Assembly (NCBI GenBank): GCA_964525415.1
Contig: CAZGGZ010000009.1
Coordinates: 1-61,690, forward strand
Direction of reading: 5' to 3'
Length of the DNA stretch: 61,690 nt
Source of the DNA: an uncultured Rikenellaceae bacterium
Lineage (GTDB): Bacteria; Bacteroidota; Bacteroidia; Bacteroidales; VadinHA17
Position 1 is the first letter of the stretch. The number at the start of each line of letters is the position of its first letter. Position numbers and translations under genes: made by a program. This document shows, piece by piece, positions 7,194 through 52,281 of this stretch. The notes under the pieces are model-generated. The model searched no databases, was not told the DNA's origin, and saw only the letters and a list, made by a program, of their open reading frames with translations.

Positions 7194-7643
7194 TACCTTG
7201 AATGGTCACAGATTTTCAGAAACAACAAAAGTATTTCATTTTTTTATTTGGCAAAGAAGCCGTTGAATTCATTCTGGCATAATTATTGTAAAAATGACAC
7301 TTAAAACTAAAATCATCTGCAGGAACGATATTTTGCAGTAAAAAGGTGTATTAAAAATGAGAAGAAAAAAAATAAGTCAAAAAAAGAACACATCTCACAA
7401 CATGTACGACAGGAATTTCAATGCGCATAACATACTCACAGACAGTTGTTTATATAATAATAAAAATGAAGTGAAAAAATTAACTGTTAATAAAATGCTA
7501 TTAGTGTTAATATTTCTGATGGTCAAGTGATACAATGTATTAGAAGAATATATATTTTCGCACCAATTAATTTTTTTATTAAGAGTATTAATTTAAAACA
7601 AAAGAGTCTTAAAGAGAAACGATGAATTTTTTCATCATCTGCT

Positions 7644-8885
7644 ATGAACGCTAACAAAAATGAGGCTACGGCTATCCGTGGTGAGAGCCGCCTCGTGGGT
7701 AGTTCTTCTGACGAAGAACCTGGCGCGAAAACCATGATTTTTTCGCAAAACGAGATCCCAATTCAGTCAGTTAGCAACCGGAGTTCGGAGTTCATGCACC
7801 GCTACTTCCCCCTGACAACCGTCGATTCCTGGAATGATTGGAAATGGCAACTGAGAAATGCTATAACAAGCATTGACGAGCTAAAGAAAATCATGAAATT
7901 ATCCGAAAAGGAGATTATGGCTATTAATAATCTTAAAGGCCGTCTTCCTATGAGGATAACTCCGTATTTCGCTTCGCTAATCTATGACACCGGGTATTCA
8001 CATCCCCTTAGAAGGAATGTTATCCCTGTCGTGGAAGAGCTTCTTACCAGTACCAGTGAACAATCTGATCCGTTACATGAGAAATCCTATTCTCCTGTAA
8101 AAGGTATTGTGCACAGATATCCCGACAGGATTCTTTTTACTGTAACCCAGGTCTGTTCAAACTATTGCAGATACTGCACTCGTTCACATTCGGTAGGCAA
8201 ACTTGACAAGCTCGGGAAACAGGATTTTGAGAAGGCATTCAGCTATATTGCAACTCACAAGGAAGTCAGAGATGTTTTGATCAGCGGTGGAGATCCTCTG
8301 ACTCTTAGCGATGCATTACTTGAATACATTGTATCAAATATCAGAAGCATTGAGCATGTTGAAATAATACGTATAGGAACGAGGATACCTGTTGTATTGC
8401 CGCAGAGGATAACCGATAACCTCGTAAACATGCTTAAAAAATACCATCCCCTCTATTTCAGCCTTCATTTTTCACATCCGTCTGAAATAACCGAGGAATG
8501 CGCGAAAGCTTGCAACAAGCTTGCCGATAACGGATTCCCTCTTGGAAGCCAGACTGTTCTTCTCAAGGGTATCAACGACAACGTTCCGGTTATGAAGGAG
8601 CTGATGCATAAGCTGCTTAAGATCAGAGTAAGACCTTATTATTTATACCAGTGTGACCTTATTCCGGGTTCAGGTCATTTCAGGACCACTGTAAAGAAGG
8701 GATTGGAAATAATTAAAGGATTGAGAGGTTTCACAAGCGGTTATGCAGTTCCTACTTTTGTTGTGGATGCTCCCGGCGGCGGCGGAAAAATACCGCTGCT
8801 CCCGAACTATGTTGTTGAGCATAACAGCGAAAAAATAGTGCTGCGTAACTATAAGGGCGTTTTATGCGAGTACCCTGAAAAATAA
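7644..8885 (+). CDS. KamA-family radical SAM/PLP aminomutase (lysine 2,3-aminomutase-like)
   Basis: CSNYCRYCTR cluster motif, VHRYPDR, LISGGDPL, YQCD and PTFVVDAPGGGGK (PLP Lys); start uncertain (7644, 7734 or 7794). Confidence 0.9.
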   Translation: MNANKNEATAIRGESRLVGSSSDEEPGAKTMIFSQNEIPIQSVSNRSSEFMHRYFPLTTVDSWNDWKWQLRNAITSIDELKKIMKLSEKEIMAINNLKGRLPMRITPYFASLIYDTGYSHPLRRNVIPVVEELLTSTSEQSDPLHEKSYSPVKGIVHRYPDRILFTVTQVCSNYCRYCTRSHSVGKLDKLGKQDFEKAFSYIATHKEVRDVLISGGDPLTLSDALLEYIVSNIRSIEHVEIIRIGTRIPVVLPQRITDNLVNMLKKYHPLYFSLHFSHPSEITEECAKACNKLADNGFPLGSQTVLLKGINDNVPVMKELMHKLLKIRVRPYYLYQCDLIPGSGHFRTTVKKGLEIIKGLRGFTSGYAVPTFVVDAPGGGGKIPLLPNYVVEHNSEKIVLRNYKGVLCEYPEK

Positions 8886-8894
8886 GACTCTTTA

Positions 8895-9869
8895 ATGAAA
8901 GTTGGCTTGACTTATGACCTGCGGTCATGGTATCTTGACCGGGGTTATTCCATGGAGGATACTGCAGAATTCGACAAGCAGGAAACCGTTGATGCAATCG
9001 ATACAGCCCTGCGTAAATTGGGCTTTGAGACAGAAGCCGTAGGTAACTGCTTCCAGCTGATTGATGCCCTGGCAGCAGGCAAGAGATGGGATCTGGTCTT
9101 TAATATAGCAGAAGGACTTTATGGTGACGGAAGAGAATCTGTAGTTCCTGCAATTCTTGATCAGTATAAGATCCCGTACGTCTTCAGCGGACCTGTTATA
9201 CTTGGGATCTCCCTCAATAAATACCTGACCAGGCTGATCGTTTCCGCAGCAGGTGTTCCGGTCAGCCCCGGCATGCTGATATCCACAAAATCGGATATAA
9301 CAAAATGCAATCTTGAATATCCCCTTTTCATCAAGCCTGTTTCAGAAGGAACAGGAAAAGGCATCACGGAAAAGAATGTGATCAATTCGCCTGCAGAACT
9401 AAAAGAGGTGGCTGAATATTTACTTGAAAGGTTCAGCCAGCCTGCACTTGTTGAGGAGTATCTTCCCGGAAGGGAATTTACTGTCGGAGTAATTGGCTCG
9501 GGTGATGATGCCATAGCAATCGGGGGAATGGAAATTGAATGCAAAAATAATTTTCCTTATTCCGTTGAGTACAAGGAGAACTATCAGGAGTTCTGCAAAT
9601 ATATTCCGATGGCAGAGGAATTCTCAGGGGAATGTAAAACGGTAGCTCTGAATGTCTGGAAAGCTCTTGGAGGCGTTGATGCCGGAAGAGTGGATGTTAA
9701 AGCTGACAGAAACGGACGGATGTGCTTCATGGAAGTAAATCCCCTGGCCGGTCTTCATCCTGTCCATTCCGATCTGCCAATCCTTTCAAAAATGATCAAT
9801 ATTGATTTCCAGGCTTTAATGGGAATGATCATGAAATCAAGTCTAAAACGACACGGACTTACAATATGA
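8895..9869 (+). CDS. D-Ala-D-Ala-ligase-like ATP-grasp enzyme A
   Basis: KPVSEGTGKGI, VEEYLPGREFTV and RVDVK...MEVNPLAG motifs; lacks the GGxSxE N-terminal motif of true Ddl. Confidence 0.85.
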   Translation: MKVGLTYDLRSWYLDRGYSMEDTAEFDKQETVDAIDTALRKLGFETEAVGNCFQLIDALAAGKRWDLVFNIAEGLYGDGRESVVPAILDQYKIPYVFSGPVILGISLNKYLTRLIVSAAGVPVSPGMLISTKSDITKCNLEYPLFIKPVSEGTGKGITEKNVINSPAELKEVAEYLLERFSQPALVEEYLPGREFTVGVIGSGDDAIAIGGMEIECKNNFPYSVEYKENYQEFCKYIPMAEEFSGECKTVALNVWKALGGVDAGRVDVKADRNGRMCFMEVNPLAGLHPVHSDLPILSKMINIDFQALMGMIMKSSLKRHGLTI

Positions 9870-10834
9870 CAGGGAAAAGATGCTGCATATTATTTAACGA
9901 GCCGTGTGAAAATGCTCTTCCGGACGAACTCGATGTTATCGAACAGGTGAAATTAATAGAAAAACCACTGATAGAATTAGGATTTGATACGTTCAGGAAA
10001 GGCATCACCCTCAATTTCATGAATGAGATAGCATCACTGGCTGATGACAGACCGGATTTTATTTTTAACCTCGTTGAATCAATAAATAATAAGGGCGAAT
10101 TATGCTATTTCATCCCTGCCCTTCTGAATATGTACTCCATTCCGTATTCCGGGAGTCCGGTGGAGGCTATGTTCATTACAACAAGCAAGGCACTTACATG
10201 CAAGGTATTAACAAAAGCAGGAATTAATACTCCAAATGGATATTTTCCTTCCCGGTTCAATCAGCTTATTCCGGGGAAGCAGTATATTATCAAACCAATC
10301 TGGGAAGATGGTTCGCTTGGCATAACAGGTGATTCTGTTTTCACCTTTGAACCCGGATATGAATCGAAGCTTATGGATTATAGCGATAACCACTGGATAA
10401 TTCAAGACTATATTGATGGAAGGGAATTCAATATTAGCTTAATTTACGGTGAACAGGGGCCGGAAGTGCTGCCTGTTGCAGAGATGACTTTCAACAATTA
10501 TTCAGAAGATAAGCCGAAAATTGTAGATTTCAAGGCAAAATGGGAAGAAGGCAGCTTTGAATATAAGAATACAATCAGAAAATTTCCGGGAGAAAATCTT
10601 GATCCGGTTCTCGAGGCGAGGATCAAATCTGTTGCCCTTGATTGCTGGAGCGAATTCGGACTCAGGGGGTATGCACGTGTTGACATGAGGGTTGATGACA
10701 ATGATATCCCCTATGTAATTGAAGTAAATGCAAATCCCTGCCTGTCGCCCGACGGCGGCGTCATTGCAGCCGTAATTGCAGCAGGCCTGCCGTTTACCGA
10801 ATTAATTAAACGTATTATAAGCGATTTAAACTAA
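9866..10834 (+). CDS. D-Ala-D-Ala-ligase-like ATP-grasp enzyme B
   Basis: KPIWEDGSLGI, QDYIDGREFN and GYARVDMR...IEVNANP motifs; ATGA overlap with the upstream ligase. Confidence 0.85.
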   Translation: MTGKRCCILFNEPCENALPDELDVIEQVKLIEKPLIELGFDTFRKGITLNFMNEIASLADDRPDFIFNLVESINNKGELCYFIPALLNMYSIPYSGSPVEAMFITTSKALTCKVLTKAGINTPNGYFPSRFNQLIPGKQYIIKPIWEDGSLGITGDSVFTFEPGYESKLMDYSDNHWIIQDYIDGREFNISLIYGEQGPEVLPVAEMTFNNYSEDKPKIVDFKAKWEEGSFEYKNTIRKFPGENLDPVLEARIKSVALDCWSEFGLRGYARVDMRVDDNDIPYVIEVNANPCLSPDGGVIAAVIAAGLPFTELIKRIISDLN

Positions 10835-10840
10835 TAAATA

Positions 10841-11323
10841 ATGACAATATTTTCTGAAGGTATAAAGACTGAAGACAAAGATAGAATAGAAGAGATACTG
10901 CGATCGACAAATTTCTTTTATGAATTTGAGATCGAAACTGCCATGGAAATTGTTGATGAAACAATACAGGACGGGATGGAAAAGAGCGGATACTATTGGC
11001 TAAAGGCAGCTGATGAGGATGGTTTAGTGGCTTTTGCCAATTACGGAAAAGATGATTTCTCAACTCATTCATGGGAGCTTTTCTGGATTGCTGTTCATGA
11101 TGCGTCAAGGCACAAGAAGCTGGGGACAGCTCTTTTAAAAGCAATAGAAGGGAATGTAGTTAAAATGGGCGGCAAGATACTCTGGATAGAAACATCAGGA
11201 CGGCCGCTCTATGCATCAACTGAAGCCTTCTATATTCGTAACGGTTATACGCTGGCTGCAAGCCTGAAGGATTTCTACGGACCTGATGATCCAAAACAGG
11301 TATACTTCAAGGTTTTACAATAG
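10841..11323 (+). CDS. GNAT family N-acetyltransferase
   Basis: 160 aa; LFWIAVHDASRHKKLGTALL (acetyl-CoA-binding motif A region) and FYIRNGY. Confidence 0.85.
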   Translation: MTIFSEGIKTEDKDRIEEILRSTNFFYEFEIETAMEIVDETIQDGMEKSGYYWLKAADEDGLVAFANYGKDDFSTHSWELFWIAVHDASRHKKLGTALLKAIEGNVVKMGGKILWIETSGRPLYASTEAFYIRNGYTLAASLKDFYGPDDPKQVYFKVLQ

Positions 11324-11812: not shown

Positions 11813-12044
11813 TTTTTCGTAAAGTTAGAAATAACCATAAACTTATACCTGCCAGAATTTGTTTATTAACAAATTGCAACTTTTGAAAGGCAGCTTTGGT
11901 CATTTAAAATGTATTGCCGGGGCAATATGATAGTATGTTTGTCAAAATATAGGAGTAATTGGTGTAAAAAATTTCCTTTGATAGATGATATTTGGTAATT
12001 TTATCGATTTACGTAAATTCATTCAAATTAAAATATTCTTGACC

Positions 12045-15005
12045 ATGAAAACGAAATTATGTTTTACCTTAATACTATTAGCTTTTGTCTTTTTGCCTGC
12101 TGAAGGTCAGGTTCCGCAAGGTCTTAATTACCAGGCAGTAGTGCGAGATGGATTGGGAAATCTTATAACTAACAGGGATTTACAGGTAAAGATCGCTATA
12201 CTTTCAGATACTGCTGGTTTTTATGCAAGCGGAACAGGCACATATGTTTGGGAAGAACAGCATAGCGTAAAGACCAACGGATTTGGAATGTTCACTCTGG
12301 TTATCGGAAGTGTCCAGGGAACGAAGGTGCAGGGATCAGCAGCCTCTTTCAGTGCAATTCCATGGACAACAACGCAGCTTTTTGTAGGAGCGAAAATCAA
12401 CTATCCCACATGGAAGCAGCTGGGAAGTGCCAGGTTATGGACAGTACCATACGCAATGATAGCCGACAAGGCAAATGGTGTAAATGCTGGCGCTAAATTA
12501 TCAGTAACAAGTACTAATGACCTCGGAACAGATGCTCTTTTTGAAGTCAAGCGCCAGGATGGTCAAACGGTTTTTGCAGTTTATCCTGATGCAGTAAACA
12601 TCTGGGTTCCACAGGAAGGTTCAAAAGGACCAAAAGGCGGATTCACTGTAGGAGGTTACGGCGCAGATAAGGCAGAGACCTATGATTTCTTCAAGGTCAC
12701 TCCGGACAGCGTAAGAATCTATATAGATCCCACTCCGGATGCTAAAGGCGCCAAGGGAGGATTTGCAGTAGGGGGTTATGGACAGGCGAAAGGTATTGAT
12801 GATATGTACTTTAACCTTACAGGAACCTCAGAGATAAGTGTGGTTAAAGCTTCCCCGCAGATATTATGGTACCCTACGAAAAATGCATTCCTGGCCGGGA
12901 ATGTTCATATAGGCGCGGCTGACAGCGTGGGAGATTATTCAACCGCACTCGGTTACCAGTCTATAGCAATGGGCGACTATTCACAGGCATTCGGGTATAA
13001 AGCCAAAGCATTTGGAGACTATTCAACCTCTATAGGCAAGAATTCCGTCGCCGGCTCAAAACTCACATCTTCCAATAATGCTTTTGCATTCGGTGACGCT
13101 GCCAAGGCGACCGGGAGTGATTCTTACGCGTTTGGTTCGGGAGCTCTTGCTTCAGGGCTCAAATCATTTGCTTTTGGTTCAGTCGGCCTCGATGATTCAC
13201 AGGTCCCGACGACAAATCCAACAAGAGCTACAGGGGACTATTCGGTTGCGATTGGTATGGGTTCTGCTGCACTAAATACAGGAGCTATATCCGTCGGTGT
13301 TGGAGCTGTATCCAGCGGAATAGCTTCCAGCACATTCGGATTCTACAGCAGTGCAAGTACAAACTTCTCGACAGCTGTCGGATATAAAGCCACAGCTAAT
13401 GGTGCTTACTCAATTTCTGTGGGTTCAAATGCCACTGTAGGCTCCACTGCAAATTACGGAAGCGCTTTCGGAAGAAGTGCCACCGCAAACGGTCCTAACT
13501 CGGTAGCAATAGGTTACAATGCATCAACAGGATCGACTGCAACAGACGCAAGCGCATTCGGCCGAAATGCTGCTGCAAACGGAACAAGCTCAATTGCCGT
13601 TGGTTACGGAGCTACAGCATCCGGCTCCAACTCTGTCGCTATCGGAACAAATGCACTGGCATCAGCAACTAATTCATATGCGTTCGGCGCAGCAGCATCT
13701 TCTGCAAATGCCAATGCCACAGCAATAGGATATCAATCACAGGCTAATGGTGAGCTTTCTATTGCCATAGGATCTTATTATACATATACACATACTTTGA
13801 TACCCTATTTTAACAGTACTGCCACAACAGGTGATTTCATCATCCGCACACCAACCATTGCACCATTGTTTAAATCAATATCGTTTAACCGGGCAAATAT
13901 AGCCAATGGCAAATATTCAATTTCAATAGGTAACGGAAACCTTTCAAACAACGGAGGATTCGCATTAGGTTCCAACAATGATGCAACGGCCTTTGGAGCA
14001 GTTGCATTGGGTGTTTCAAATAAAGCCGTTAATACCAATACCTATGCAGCAGGTTTTAACAACCTTGCTACAGGATATTATGCAACTGCCTTCGGCAATA
14101 ACACTTATTCAAAAGCATTTGGTTCATTCGTGATTGGCCAGTATAATATAATCGCAGGCGACTCAACACAGTGGAAGAGTACAGATCCTCTTTTCGTTGT
14201 TGGAAACGGATTAAGCTCCACCGACAGATCAAATGCGGTAACTGTATATAAAAACGGACGGTCGATTTTTACAGGTGAACATGCCAATATAAGCCTTAAT
14301 GATAAAACGACCAAGTTGTTATTTATCAGGGGAGTCGGAGTGGTAATAAGAACCACCGTCTTTGGCATCAAGTCATATGTTAACAGGGCAGATACGGAGG
14401 TAGACTACTATTACAGCGGGTATTTCTATGATACAGGTACTGCCGGTACATATAAAGGACTATACGCAGATGTAATCGAAAATGATTACTTGTATACTGA
14501 CTATATAAATGGAGTAGCTGCCGATGTGGCAGAGTATTACCATGACTCCAACGCAAATACGGAACCCGGGGATATTGTTGTTGCCGATCAGGTTAAGAAA
14601 GAAAGTGTTGTCAGATCAAGCAAACCATATCAGGCTGGTATTTTAGGAGCCATTTCCACAAAACCGCTGATAGTTATGGGCTCTGAACTGGTAGTTGATG
14701 ATAAAACGATGAAAACCCATGATGGAGGTATTGCTACAATGGTTGCTCTTACAGGCCGCGTGCCTGTTAAAGTAACAGGTGAGAATGGGGCAATCGTACC
14801 AGGTGATCTGTTAACATCGTCTTCAGTACCCGGTCACGCAATGAAATGGACGCTTCTCGATGTTACCAAAGCAAAGGATTTTGAGGAAATGAAATCAATC
14901 CTTGCTGAGAACGAAAGAAGACGGAATGCAATAATAGGCAAAGCTGTTGAAGGTTTTTCAGGATCCGGAACAGGAAAGATAATGGTTCTGATATCCCTTC
15001 AGTAA
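12045..15005 (+). CDS. Secreted trimeric fibre/adhesin-like protein with YadA-head-type repeats and a C-terminal intramolecular chaperone-like domain
   Basis: Signal peptide from ATG 12045; N-terminal VPQGLNYQAVVRD domain; many ~14-aa AxAxGxxSxAxG repeats; C-terminal DVAEYY...GRVPVKV...GDLLTSS...GHAM. Confidence 0.75.
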   Translation: MKTKLCFTLILLAFVFLPAEGQVPQGLNYQAVVRDGLGNLITNRDLQVKIAILSDTAGFYASGTGTYVWEEQHSVKTNGFGMFTLVIGSVQGTKVQGSAASFSAIPWTTTQLFVGAKINYPTWKQLGSARLWTVPYAMIADKANGVNAGAKLSVTSTNDLGTDALFEVKRQDGQTVFAVYPDAVNIWVPQEGSKGPKGGFTVGGYGADKAETYDFFKVTPDSVRIYIDPTPDAKGAKGGFAVGGYGQAKGIDDMYFNLTGTSEISVVKASPQILWYPTKNAFLAGNVHIGAADSVGDYSTALGYQSIAMGDYSQAFGYKAKAFGDYSTSIGKNSVAGSKLTSSNNAFAFGDAAKATGSDSYAFGSGALASGLKSFAFGSVGLDDSQVPTTNPTRATGDYSVAIGMGSAALNTGAISVGVGAVSSGIASSTFGFYSSASTNFSTAVGYKATANGAYSISVGSNATVGSTANYGSAFGRSATANGPNSVAIGYNASTGSTATDASAFGRNAAANGTSSIAVGYGATASGSNSVAIGTNALASATNSYAFGAAASSANANATAIGYQSQANGELSIAIGSYYTYTHTLIPYFNSTATTGDFIIRTPTIAPLFKSISFNRANIANGKYSISIGNGNLSNNGGFALGSNNDATAFGAVALGVSNKAVNTNTYAAGFNNLATGYYATAFGNNTYSKAFGSFVIGQYNIIAGDSTQWKSTDPLFVVGNGLSSTDRSNAVTVYKNGRSIFTGEHANISLNDKTTKLLFIRGVGVVIRTTVFGIKSYVNRADTEVDYYYSGYFYDTGTAGTYKGLYADVIENDYLYTDYINGVAADVAEYYHDSNANTEPGDIVVADQVKKESVVRSSKPYQAGILGAISTKPLIVMGSELVVDDKTMKTHDGGIATMVALTGRVPVKVTGENGAIVPGDLLTSSSVPGHAMKWTLLDVTKAKDFEEMKSILAENERRRNAIIGKAVEGFSGSGTGKIMVLISLQ

Positions 15006-35209: not shown

Positions 35210-35283
35210 TGATTCCGGGGCGACTCGAACGCCCGACCCGCAGCTTAGAAGGCTGCTGCTCTATCCAGCTGAGCTACGGAACC
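35210..35283 (-). tRNA. tRNA-Arg (anticodon UCU)
   Basis: GGTTCCG/CGGAATC acceptor stem, GCTC AGCTGGATA GAGC D-arm, GCAGC CTTCTAA GCTGC anticodon arm, GGGCG TTCGAGT CGCCC T-arm; CCA not encoded. Confidence 0.97.
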
Positions 35284-51908: not shown

Positions 51909-52013
51909 TCACTCCTATCTCTATTAAAGCCTTATTCAGGATTTCAGAAGGATAAGAATGGAATCAACTCGGACTCTGAGCCTTACTTCCCGAAAGCCTT
52001 GAACATGGTTTGT

Positions 52014-52200
52014 CTGGCAGGTCTTCTGACTTGTCCCGGCCTTATGAAGCCTTCCCATCCCGAGTCCTCGGGACAGTGGCAGGTTATCATAAAGCCATCA
52101 TCGTTAGAACGATCGGGCATCACAGCAGCGGGTACTGTCGCGGATTCACACCGCATTCCCTTTTCATCGCGCTGATTTTATTTCAGAGCGACACCAATAC
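52014..52200 (-). promoter_or_regulatory. Cobalamin (AdoCbl) riboswitch
   Basis: Minus strand GGTG...AAAAGGGAATGCGGTGTGAATCCGCGACAGTACCCGCTGCTGT...GCCACTG...GGGAAGG...AAGTCAGAAGACCTGCC (B12 box). Confidence 0.96.
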
Positions 52201-52204
52201 TGAA

Positions 52205-52212
52205 CAAAGATA
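52205..52212 (-). promoter_or_regulatory. -7 promoter element for the riboswitch/btu transcript
   Basis: Minus strand TATCTTTG immediately upstream of the aptamer. Confidence 0.7.
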
Positions 52213-52281
52213 AACTAATTATTAAATCAAAACAGGTTGATAACTCAGGGAGATATTAACAAGAGGGTTGCTGGTTGCTGG

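Follow-up and report, generated by a model that had tools for sequence, protein, structure and literature searches.

Here we describe a four-gene cassette in a 61,690-nt stretch of DNA (contig CAZGGZ010000009.1, hereafter the window) from an uncultured Rikenellaceae bacterium. It encodes a KamA-type radical SAM aminomutase, two ATP-grasp ligases (ligase 1 and ligase 2) and a GNAT-family acetyltransferase (GNAT), and we propose, with moderate confidence, that it directs the biosynthesis of an N-acetylated small peptide or amide containing beta-lysine. This proposal is anchored in the co-conservation of the genes, the intact active sites of their products and the fold, which are demonstrated, and extends from there to a predicted series of reactions. 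The four-gene unit is real, old and mobile across phyla, with KamA and both ligases as its core. Each of the enzyme families is known, but their combination is undescribed: no description of it was found in the full-text literature searched, in which phrases with "2,3" were probably unmatchable, so that the negatives for aminomutase names are weak. No curated NCBIfam equivalog fits the cassette proteins either, and public records name the ligases D-alanine--D-alanine ligase or "hypothetical".

The breadth of the cassette was examined by searches centred on the ligases, as an initial homologue search was dominated by close relatives and gave no breadth. A search with ligase 1 against 1.8 billion cluster representatives returned 523 clusters at E < 1e-30. 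In addition, species-representative genomes were scanned with two patterns, derived from an alignment of fused ligase proteins and from the ligase of Desulfovibrio sp. X2, each of which gave at least 600 matching stretches. Counts for distant loci refer throughout to the best 80 of these matches per scan and include only loci with enough flanking DNA. The closest loci were found in Bacteroidales metagenome-assembled genomes (MAGs) from lake sediment, fen and digester, with ligase 1 identities of 77-89%. In these close Bacteroidales, the same-strand order kamA, ligase 1, ligase 2, GNAT was kept almost without exception (kamA-ligase 1, 58/58; ligase 1-ligase 2, 75/75; GNAT, 58/61). Because the entire region is syntenic in 80 close relatives, with the MATE transporter gene and GNAT as the varying members, this conservation counts for little. 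The distant loci are more informative: in 140 of 147, kamA preceded ligase 1 on its strand at a distance of at most 1.2 kb, ligase 2 came directly after ligase 1 in 144 of 152, and a GNAT homologous to that of the window followed in 100 of 121. Since it recurs across phyla, the arrangement is far beyond chance. Moreover, Pfam-annotated gene calls in Desulfovibrio sp. X2 and in gammaproteobacterial and other MAGs showed the same four genes, each time between unrelated flanks. The original prediction had taken the four co-oriented open reading frames, with junctions of 9 nt (kamA/ligase 1), -4 nt (ligase 1/ligase 2) and 6 nt (ligase 2/GNAT), to be one functional unit. The frames and junctions are exactly where it placed them, about 95% of 150 distant loci combine KamA with the ligases and 83% have GNAT, and the gene-neighbourhood survey that it proposed as a check found the four-gene order kept across phyla.

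Overall, the cassette spans hundreds of species, mostly uncultured and mostly of anaerobe lineages, in about a dozen phyla. The distant hosts (best 80 per scan) belong to Planctomycetota, Desulfobacterota (Desulfosarcina variabilis, Desulfatitalea, Smithella, Syntrophales and Desulfovibrio), Alphaproteobacteria (Rhizomicrobium and Filomicrobium), Ignavibacteriales and other Bacteroidota, Spirochaetota, Fibrobacterota and Omnitrophota, and further to Lentisphaerota, Verrucomicrobiota, Acidobacteriota, Krumholzibacteriia, Aminicenantes and WOR-3. A few carrier bins are labelled Bacillota or Patescibacteria and may be mis-binned. Most hosts are MAGs from freshwater, peat or digesters; Desulfovibrio sp. 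X2 and Desulfosarcina variabilis are cultured carriers.

The first enzyme of the cassette has the active site of a lysine 2,3-aminomutase. Residues 59-412 of the window KamA align with the clostridial enzyme (PDB 2A5H) at 459 bits. The CxxxCxxC cysteines C171, C175 and C178 correspond to C125, C129 and C132 of 2A5H, R180, two residues past the third cysteine, to R134, D338 (in YQCD) to D293, D375 (in VVDAP) to D330, and K382, the pyridoxal-phosphate-binding lysine in GGGGK, to K337. In the clostridial enzyme, D293 and D330 bind the epsilon-amine of lysine, and R134 binds its carboxylate. All seven residues of the window protein were invariant in 71 of 71 distant cassette KamAs. AblA was the best NCBIfam model for all six cassette KamAs tested, but none reached the cut-off of this equivalog (TIGR03820, 525.4 bits): the window KamA scored 506.2 bits with a match that stops at model position 360 of 417, and five distant ones scored 443-500 bits with matches ending at 360-363. 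It is this early end of the match that places the cassette KamAs under the cut-off. The window protein does pass the KamA subfamily model TIGR00238 (369.5 versus 199.2 bits), and the cassette KamAs score far under the models for glutamate, arginine and EpmB aminomutases (256.7 bits for the window KamA on the EpmB equivalog, cut-off 369.3).

The missing segment is the Cys-rich C-terminal tail of the clostridial enzyme. The window KamA ends at the equivalent of residue 368 of this 416-aa protein, and the distant cassette KamAs, which run a median of 10 aa past the end of the window protein, likewise have no C-terminal tail. In the clostridial enzyme, three cysteines of this tail bind zinc together with C268. 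This fourth ligand is replaced by N313 in the window and by Asp, Ser, Asn or Thr, never Cys, in the 71 distant homologues. With the tail absent and C268 replaced, the entire inter-subunit zinc site is gone. Judged by these alignments and scores, the cassette KamAs are a distinct lysine-type clade without the zinc tail, and their predicted reaction is the conversion of L-lysine to beta-lysine.

At the other end, the window KamA carries a 58-aa N-terminal extension (7644-7820) that is absent from clostridial KamA and variable among the cassette KamAs (those of loci L081-L246 included). The extension bears a short acidic Pro-Pro motif, such as EEEEPPG, DEEPPG or EDIEPPGS (SSDEEPG in the window), which was found in 61 of 62 close and 74 of 146 distant KamAs, with about 2 expected from shuffled sequences; it may serve to dock a partner protein. 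A second feature near kamA is a CxxCxxCC protein of 160-190 aa (PF03692, YkgJ-like), encoded between kamA and ligase 1 in 17 of 72 loci. Its carriers are Planctomycetota and some Desulfobacterales (for example, L118, 6496-6984), it is absent from the window, and it is fused to ligase 1 in the metagenomic protein P0136. This metal-cluster protein may serve the radical SAM enzyme as an electron donor or chaperone.

The two ligases are paralogues with 28% identity to each other, and each is about 20-25% identical to solved D-alanine--D-alanine ligases (Ddl). Ligase 1 matched Pfam Dala_Dala_lig_C with 84.6 bits, and its AlphaFold2 model (pLDDT 93.3) resembled Ddl structures (TM score about 0.8, sequence identity about 23%). 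Nonetheless, both ligases fall well short of all NCBIfam cut-offs for Ddl and Van enzymes: ligases 1 and 2 scored 137 and 100 bits on NF002378 (cut-off 243) and 112 and 78 bits on TIGR01205 (cut-off 245.65). The GGxSxE motif is absent from both; by manual alignment, an invariant glutamate (E25, in AEFD) may stand in for Ddl E15. The motifs EGTGKG and EVNPLAG of ligase 1 are replaced by EDGSLG and EVNANPC in ligase 2. The catalytic residues are retained. In ligase 1, the invariant K109, K147, E187 and K227 align with Ddl K97, K144, E180 and K215, and the invariant R265, D267, E280 and N282 with Ddl R255, D257, E270 and N272. In ligase 2, K108, K143, E187, R271, D273 and N288 are invariant, K225 and W226 were kept in 79 of 83 loci, and position 286 was Glu (as in the window) or Asp in 83 of 83. 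The positions that differ are those of substrate specificity: Ddl Y216 is E228 in the window ligase 1 (Glu is the consensus, conserved in less than 88%) and W226 in ligase 2, and an invariant S292-D293 of ligase 1 lies where DdlB has S281-L282. These comparisons suggest that both ligases are probably active enzymes with altered substrate pockets, which probably keep the chemistry of Ddl, namely activation of a carboxylate followed by attack of an amine, and that the D-alanine--D-alanine ligase label on both is probably wrong.

Several statements of the original prediction concerned these three enzymes. The alignment with 2A5H confirms the KamA motif residues it had listed, and its claim that the protein ends ahead of the zinc tail holds, to which the change at C268 is a new addition. 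Its assignment of a lysine-type aminomutase is upheld by D338 and D375 in 71 of 71 distant KamAs and by AblA as the best model. The ligase motifs it had named are present and GGxSxE is indeed lacking, and its view that the ligases are not those of peptidoglycan synthesis agrees with the family scores on NF002378.

The same data bear on the simplest alternative, that the cassette is a plain AblAB pathway for the osmolyte N-epsilon-acetyl-beta-lysine in which the ligases are ordinary Ddl enzymes that lie between the two genes by chance. Although KamA scores best on the AblA model, a GNAT is present and public records call the ligases D-alanine--D-alanine ligase, this explanation is very unlikely. 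The ligases are the steadiest partners of KamA (about 95% across phyla), steadier than GNAT; they fall far under every Ddl cut-off, and the Ddl specificity residues are replaced (Y216 by mostly Glu or by Trp, L282 by the invariant Asp in ligase 1). Furthermore, the GNAT fails the AblB model (TIGR03827) with 19.6 bits against a cut-off of 205.1 and is thus not AblB-like. An osmolyte role as such has no specific support, given hosts that are mostly freshwater, peat or digester MAGs and this GNAT.

How the two ligases work together is suggested by their gene arrangement. The ligase 1 stop and the ligase 2 start share the sequence ATGA, and this 4-nt overlap suggests translational coupling. A single open reading frame encoded both ligases in 3 of 163 loci, and at least 13 metagenomic proteins likewise combined the two. 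The fused loci include L034 (6001-7938, a close Bacteroidales MAG) and L108 (7001-8992, an Omnitrophota MAG), in which the fusion may be natural or an artefact of assembly; L154 was also accepted by the automated test for fusions, but ligase 1 alone matched there, and it is not counted with confidence. One metagenomic protein joins KamA to ligase 1, and one joins the CxxCxxCC protein to ligase 1. With 3 true fusions in 163 loci and singletons among the metagenomic ones, the Rosetta-stone (fusion) argument was downgraded. We also observed a second protein family of 560-720 aa (P0131, P0133, P0139, P0160, P0165 and others), both ATP-grasp halves of which are nearer to ligase 1 than to ligase 2; it is perhaps a sister system with other substrates.

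We next consider the GNAT and its accessory partners. The window GNAT matched PDB 2R7H, a structural-genomics entry of unknown function titled "putative D-alanine N-acetyltransferase", with 90.3 bits, and the Desulfosarcina GNAT domain did so with 152 bits; the window protein is a close relative, and probably an orthologue, of 2R7H. Its predicted role is to acetylate a free amine, either on the ligase product or on beta-lysine. A domain of the histone-deacetylase (HDAC) family, absent from the window, precedes the GNAT or is fused to it in 30 of 121 distant loci. In Desulfosarcina variabilis (L127, 9022-11277), a 751-aa protein has the architecture GNAT-deacetylase-GNAT, with opposed activities within one polypeptide, and the same form occurs at L163 (10069-12323). 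This deacetylase domain is nearest to the acetylpolyamine amidohydrolases (APAH; 247 bits to 6PHR and 204 bits to 3Q9B), compared with about 128 bits to protein deacetylases of the HDAH/AcuC type. An APAH-like partner of the GNAT points to a small amine as the substrate. Other genes were seen beside individual cassettes: an Acyl_transf_3 membrane acyltransferase gene after GNAT in Desulfovibrio sp. X2, and, in a deltaproteobacterial-type MAG (L164, 10086-14310), a separate amidoligase cluster after the cassette, made up of a C39-like peptidase, an RLAN/RimK ATP-grasp protein, a GCS2 carboxylate-amine ligase and an FGase.

The nature of the deacetylase is also relevant to the possibility that the target is a macromolecule, through protein beta-lysylation with reversible acetylation, modelled on EpmAB/EF-P or on the extension of protein carboxylates by RimK/LysX-type ATP-grasp enzymes, or through a change to the envelope, for example to the peptidoglycan stem peptide. 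In its more radical version, our proposal would become such a new beta-lysine-based modification of protein or envelope. Beta-lysine is known as a protein modification and ATP-grasp enzymes are known to act on proteins; HDAC-family and GNAT enzymes often have protein substrates, Ddl-fold enzymes normally supply peptidoglycan, and the Desulfovibrio sp. X2 cassette is followed by the membrane acyltransferase mentioned above. We nevertheless regard a macromolecular target as unlikely. The deacetylase is nearer to the small-molecule APAHs than to protein deacetylases, the KamA stays well below the EpmB cut-off (257 versus 369 bits) with no EpmA-like gene in the annotated neighbourhoods, no efp, ribosomal-protein or mur gene recurs beside the cassette in the annotated loci, and ligase 1 models as a compact Ddl fold.

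Regarding transport, the divergent MATE gene upstream of kamA was considered as a dedicated exporter and rejected, since only 25 of 80 close relatives carry it and, among distant loci, about 1 in 160. A crude hydrophobicity count revealed no conserved transporter family: a protein with at least six transmembrane segments was encoded within 2.5 kb in 25 of 63 loci, which we judge to be roughly what any neighbourhood gives.

Regulation was approached through the DNA upstream of kamA. When the 330 nt that precede kamA were aligned across 64 loci of close Bacteroidales, one block (7482-7570) stood out as at least 90% conserved, unlike the remaining intergenic DNA (450 nt in total). Within this block lie two direct repeats of GTTAATA, a palindrome (ATACAATGTAT) and an AT-rich stretch that resembles a promoter; it is probably the operon promoter/operator. 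Promoter and terminator scans gave results no different from shuffled sequence, and Rfam searches upstream of kamA gave no match in the window, even at a permissive threshold, and none in 18 distant loci. We also noted a 10-codon upstream open reading frame at 7624-7656 (ATG AAT TTT TTC ATC ATC TGC TAT GAA CGC TAA), which overlaps the kamA start codon in another frame, whose DNA is highly conserved in close relatives and whose region contains an inverted repeat (ATGAA-TTTTT-TTCAT); it may act as a leader or in coupling. In 17 of 130 distant loci, an orthologous sigma-54 enhancer-binding protein, absent from the window, is encoded just upstream of the cassette (L161, 1718-3166; L165, 3873-5279; L166, 3607-5013; and 14 others). 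These activators are 50-56% identical between lineages, and by record titles their hosts are mostly deltaproteobacterial or Desulfobacterota MAGs; a DUF5818 gene separates activator and cassette in Desulfovibrio sp. X2. A strict sigma-54 promoter pattern upstream of kamA was present in 6 loci only. The adjacent activator suggests sigma-54-regulated expression.

From these observations, we propose the following pathway. KamA, whose active-site residues are fully conserved, would turn L-lysine into beta-lysine. Each ligase would then form one amide bond, using ATP to generate an acyl-phosphate, and so join beta-lysine to one or two more units, which could be amino acids, another beta-lysine or an amine. 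On the model of the Ddl homodimer, ligases 1 and 2 probably pair as a heterodimer, an idea to which coupling and the rare fusions lend slight support. More speculatively, a substrate with an extra amine would fit the acidic residue that is invariant in the second-substrate site of ligase 1. Finally, the GNAT would acetylate a leftover primary amine. The terminal epsilon-amine is the likeliest site, as about a quarter of lineages have an APAH-type deacetylase fused to the GNAT or next to it, and this APAH-like partner would make the acetylation reversible. The product is probably intracellular, either a regulated solute or a polyamine-like molecule. An intracellular regulated molecule is favoured over a secreted antibiotic because there is no conserved exporter, the cassette is vertically stable in the Bacteroidales clade, and a sigma-54 activator accompanies it in Desulfobacterota. 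The pathway of the original prediction, in which beta-lysine is formed, coupled and N-acetylated, is therefore retained in its logic, with the conservation across phyla behind it, and the two ligation steps or heterodimeric ligase that it envisaged are plausible because both ligases keep their catalytic residues; its MATE exporter is lost, with no other conserved transporter family to take that place.

Two ligases could also serve to build an oligomer or polymer, such as streptothricin-like beta-lysine chains or a cyanophycin-like storage polymer, with acetylation and deacetylation to cap, detoxify or mobilise it and a role in nitrogen storage or as a polycationic antimicrobial. Two distinct ligase activities recall the two active sites of cyanophycin synthetase, and acetylation of a beta-lysine amine is the mechanism of streptothricin self-resistance; the sigma-54 activators beside the cassette in Desulfobacterota and the opposed GNAT and deacetylase domains within one protein count in the same direction. 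However, the Ddl-type enzymes characterised so far form dipeptides within a closed pocket, we saw no sign of primer-dependent polymerisation, and the cyanophycin synthetase model NF010623 matched just the ATP-binding segment, at 39.4 bits (cut-off 877). In addition, no exporter, hydrolase or resistance gene is conserved in the annotated neighbourhoods, and the cassette seems to be vertically inherited and is syntenic in the whole Bacteroidales clade, which is more like a housekeeping function than an antibiotic. We accordingly give the polymer little credence.

A catabolic role was weighed as well, in which the deacetylase and a reversed KamA would recover lysine from N-acetyl-beta-lysine released by co-resident methanogens. 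Many hosts are syntrophs or fermenters of methanogenic habitats (Smithella, Syntrophales, and Bacteroidales of peat, fens and digesters), the lysine 2,3-aminomutase reaction runs both ways, and a deacetylase for acetylated amines is often present. Yet such salvage would leave two ATP-consuming ligases and an acetyltransferase without a catabolic role, the deacetylase occurs in only about 25% of loci, and there is no conserved uptake system. We therefore hold salvage to be highly improbable.

The proposed biosynthesis of an acetylated beta-lysine peptide or amide has its own weak points. Most loci come from MAGs, so that some taxon labels may be binning errors. The support consists of sequence comparison and a predicted fold, and the ligase substrates are putative. 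The GNAT is missing from about 17% of the distant and 3 of 61 close loci, so that the acetylation step may be dispensable. The choice of the epsilon-amine as the acetylated position relies solely on the family of the deacetylase, the finding of no conserved transporter comes from a crude count of hydrophobicity, and, since ligase fusions are rare and the metagenomic ones singletons, paralogy and coupling are the main grounds for the heterodimer. Slightly more tentatively than the general proposal, we suggest that in hundreds of uncultured anaerobic species from a dozen or more phyla the cassette makes a kind of metabolite not described before: a di- or tripeptide, or an amide, of beta-lysine that is N-acetylated and whose acetylation acts as a reversible switch.

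The positions of the cassette genes and of the conserved upstream block are given in Table 1. The gene divergent from kamA is a MatE member by Pfam. The other flanking genes of the window encode an alpha-L-rhamnosidase, an EamA transporter, an RF-1-domain protein, a convergent CYTH protein, a YadA-head repeat protein, a uracil-DNA glycosylase and a Cys/Met PLP enzyme; like the MATE gene, they have no evident link to the cassette. The YadA-head repeat protein (11985-15005, 1006 aa) is adhesin- or fibre-like; at its position in close relatives it is only partly conserved or is absent, so that it is an insertion that varies within a region whose synteny is otherwise kept. No local anomaly of composition was seen in the window, nor does it show a canonical ddl in its 61,690 nt. 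Its only Rfam matches are a cobalamin riboswitch (51999-52214, minus strand, 98.7 bits) and a tRNA gene (35210-35283, minus strand), and none of the four cassette proteins matched a PADLOC anti-phage defence model.

Table 1 Cassette genes and upstream block in the window
Feature	Position	Strand	Length	Basis of assignment
kamA	7644-8885	+	413 aa	Pfam Radical_SAM + LAM_C
ligase 1	8895-9869	+	324 aa	Pfam Dala_Dala_lig_C / ATP-grasp
ligase 2	9866-10834	+	322 aa	Pfam Dala_Dala_lig_C / ATP-grasp
GNAT	10841-11323	+	160 aa	Pfam Acetyltransf_1
conserved non-coding block, putative promoter/operator	7482-7570	+		alignment of close relatives

Dominant uncultured anaerobes from sediments, peat and digesters are among the hosts, and the proposal, if true, would disclose a widespread and so far invisible part of anaerobe physiology, be it a stress solute, a polyamine substitute or a nitrogen reserve. 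The probable mislabelling of the ligases as Ddl inflates the apparent counts of cell-wall genes, and PDB 2R7H gains a pathway context for its unknown function. If identified, the product would add a new use of beta-lysine to N-acetyl-beta-lysine, EF-P lysylation and antibiotic side chains, and provide the substrate for a new branch of the Ddl family. The cassette is not categorically new, but it is a tractable orphan pathway for which cultured carriers exist.

Finally, the cassette was compared with known systems. Curated sequence criteria place it outside AblAB, Ddl, EpmAB and cyanophycin synthetase; by analogy, it would work like a hybrid of AblAB, Ddl and NAGGN logic. With AblA/AblB of methanogens and some bacteria, it shares a KamA/AblA-type aminomutase, a same-strand GNAT and the presumed beta-lysine intermediate. 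It differs in the two ATP-grasp ligases between them, which are linked to KamA more tightly than the GNAT is, in a GNAT that is a 160-aa single domain related to 2R7H rather than AblB, and in a KamA that lacks the last ~55 model positions and the zinc site and stays below the equivalog cut-off. With the Ddl/Van enzymes, the ligases share the fold (ligase 1) and, in both cases, the same residues for ATP, Mg and the acyl-phosphate, but they have ~20-25% identity, no GGxSxE and changed specificity positions, and form an obligate paralogue pair beside an aminomutase instead of standing in a mur/ftsQ context. In the NAGGN pathway, an acetyltransferase and an ATP-grasp-made peptide bond reportedly yield a small N-acetylated peptide solute. 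The likeness to its bifunctional enzyme Ngg (GNAT + ATP-grasp) and to AsnO is one of pathway logic only; the cassette has no asparagine-synthetase-like amidotransferase, has two Ddl-type ligases instead of one RimK-type domain, and uses as building block a beta-amino acid from a radical SAM enzyme. The L-amino-acid ligases BacD, TabS and RizA likewise resemble it in pathway logic only.

Like EpmA/EpmB, the cassette pairs a tail-less KamA-family aminomutase, as a source of beta-lysine, with ATP-dependent ligation. Its KamA is much nearer to the lysine 2,3-aminomutases (506 bits on AblA; 257 versus 369 on EpmB), however, and its ligases are ATP-grasp enzymes rather than a LysRS paralogue, with no efp linkage seen. 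The accessory deacetylase is APAH-like and paired with GNATs, as in the control of polyamine acetylation by APAH and polyamine acetyltransferases; the GNAT-deacetylase-GNAT form, inside a beta-lysine/ligase cassette, sets it apart. In Bacillus, the kamA (yodO)-yodP operon includes a beta-lysine acetyltransferase. Like this operon and clostridial lysine fermentation, the cassette starts with a lysine 2,3-aminomutase, but the catabolic genes that follow there (B12 aminomutase, dehydrogenase, cleavage enzyme, CoA transferase and aminotransferase) are absent from its annotated neighbourhoods.

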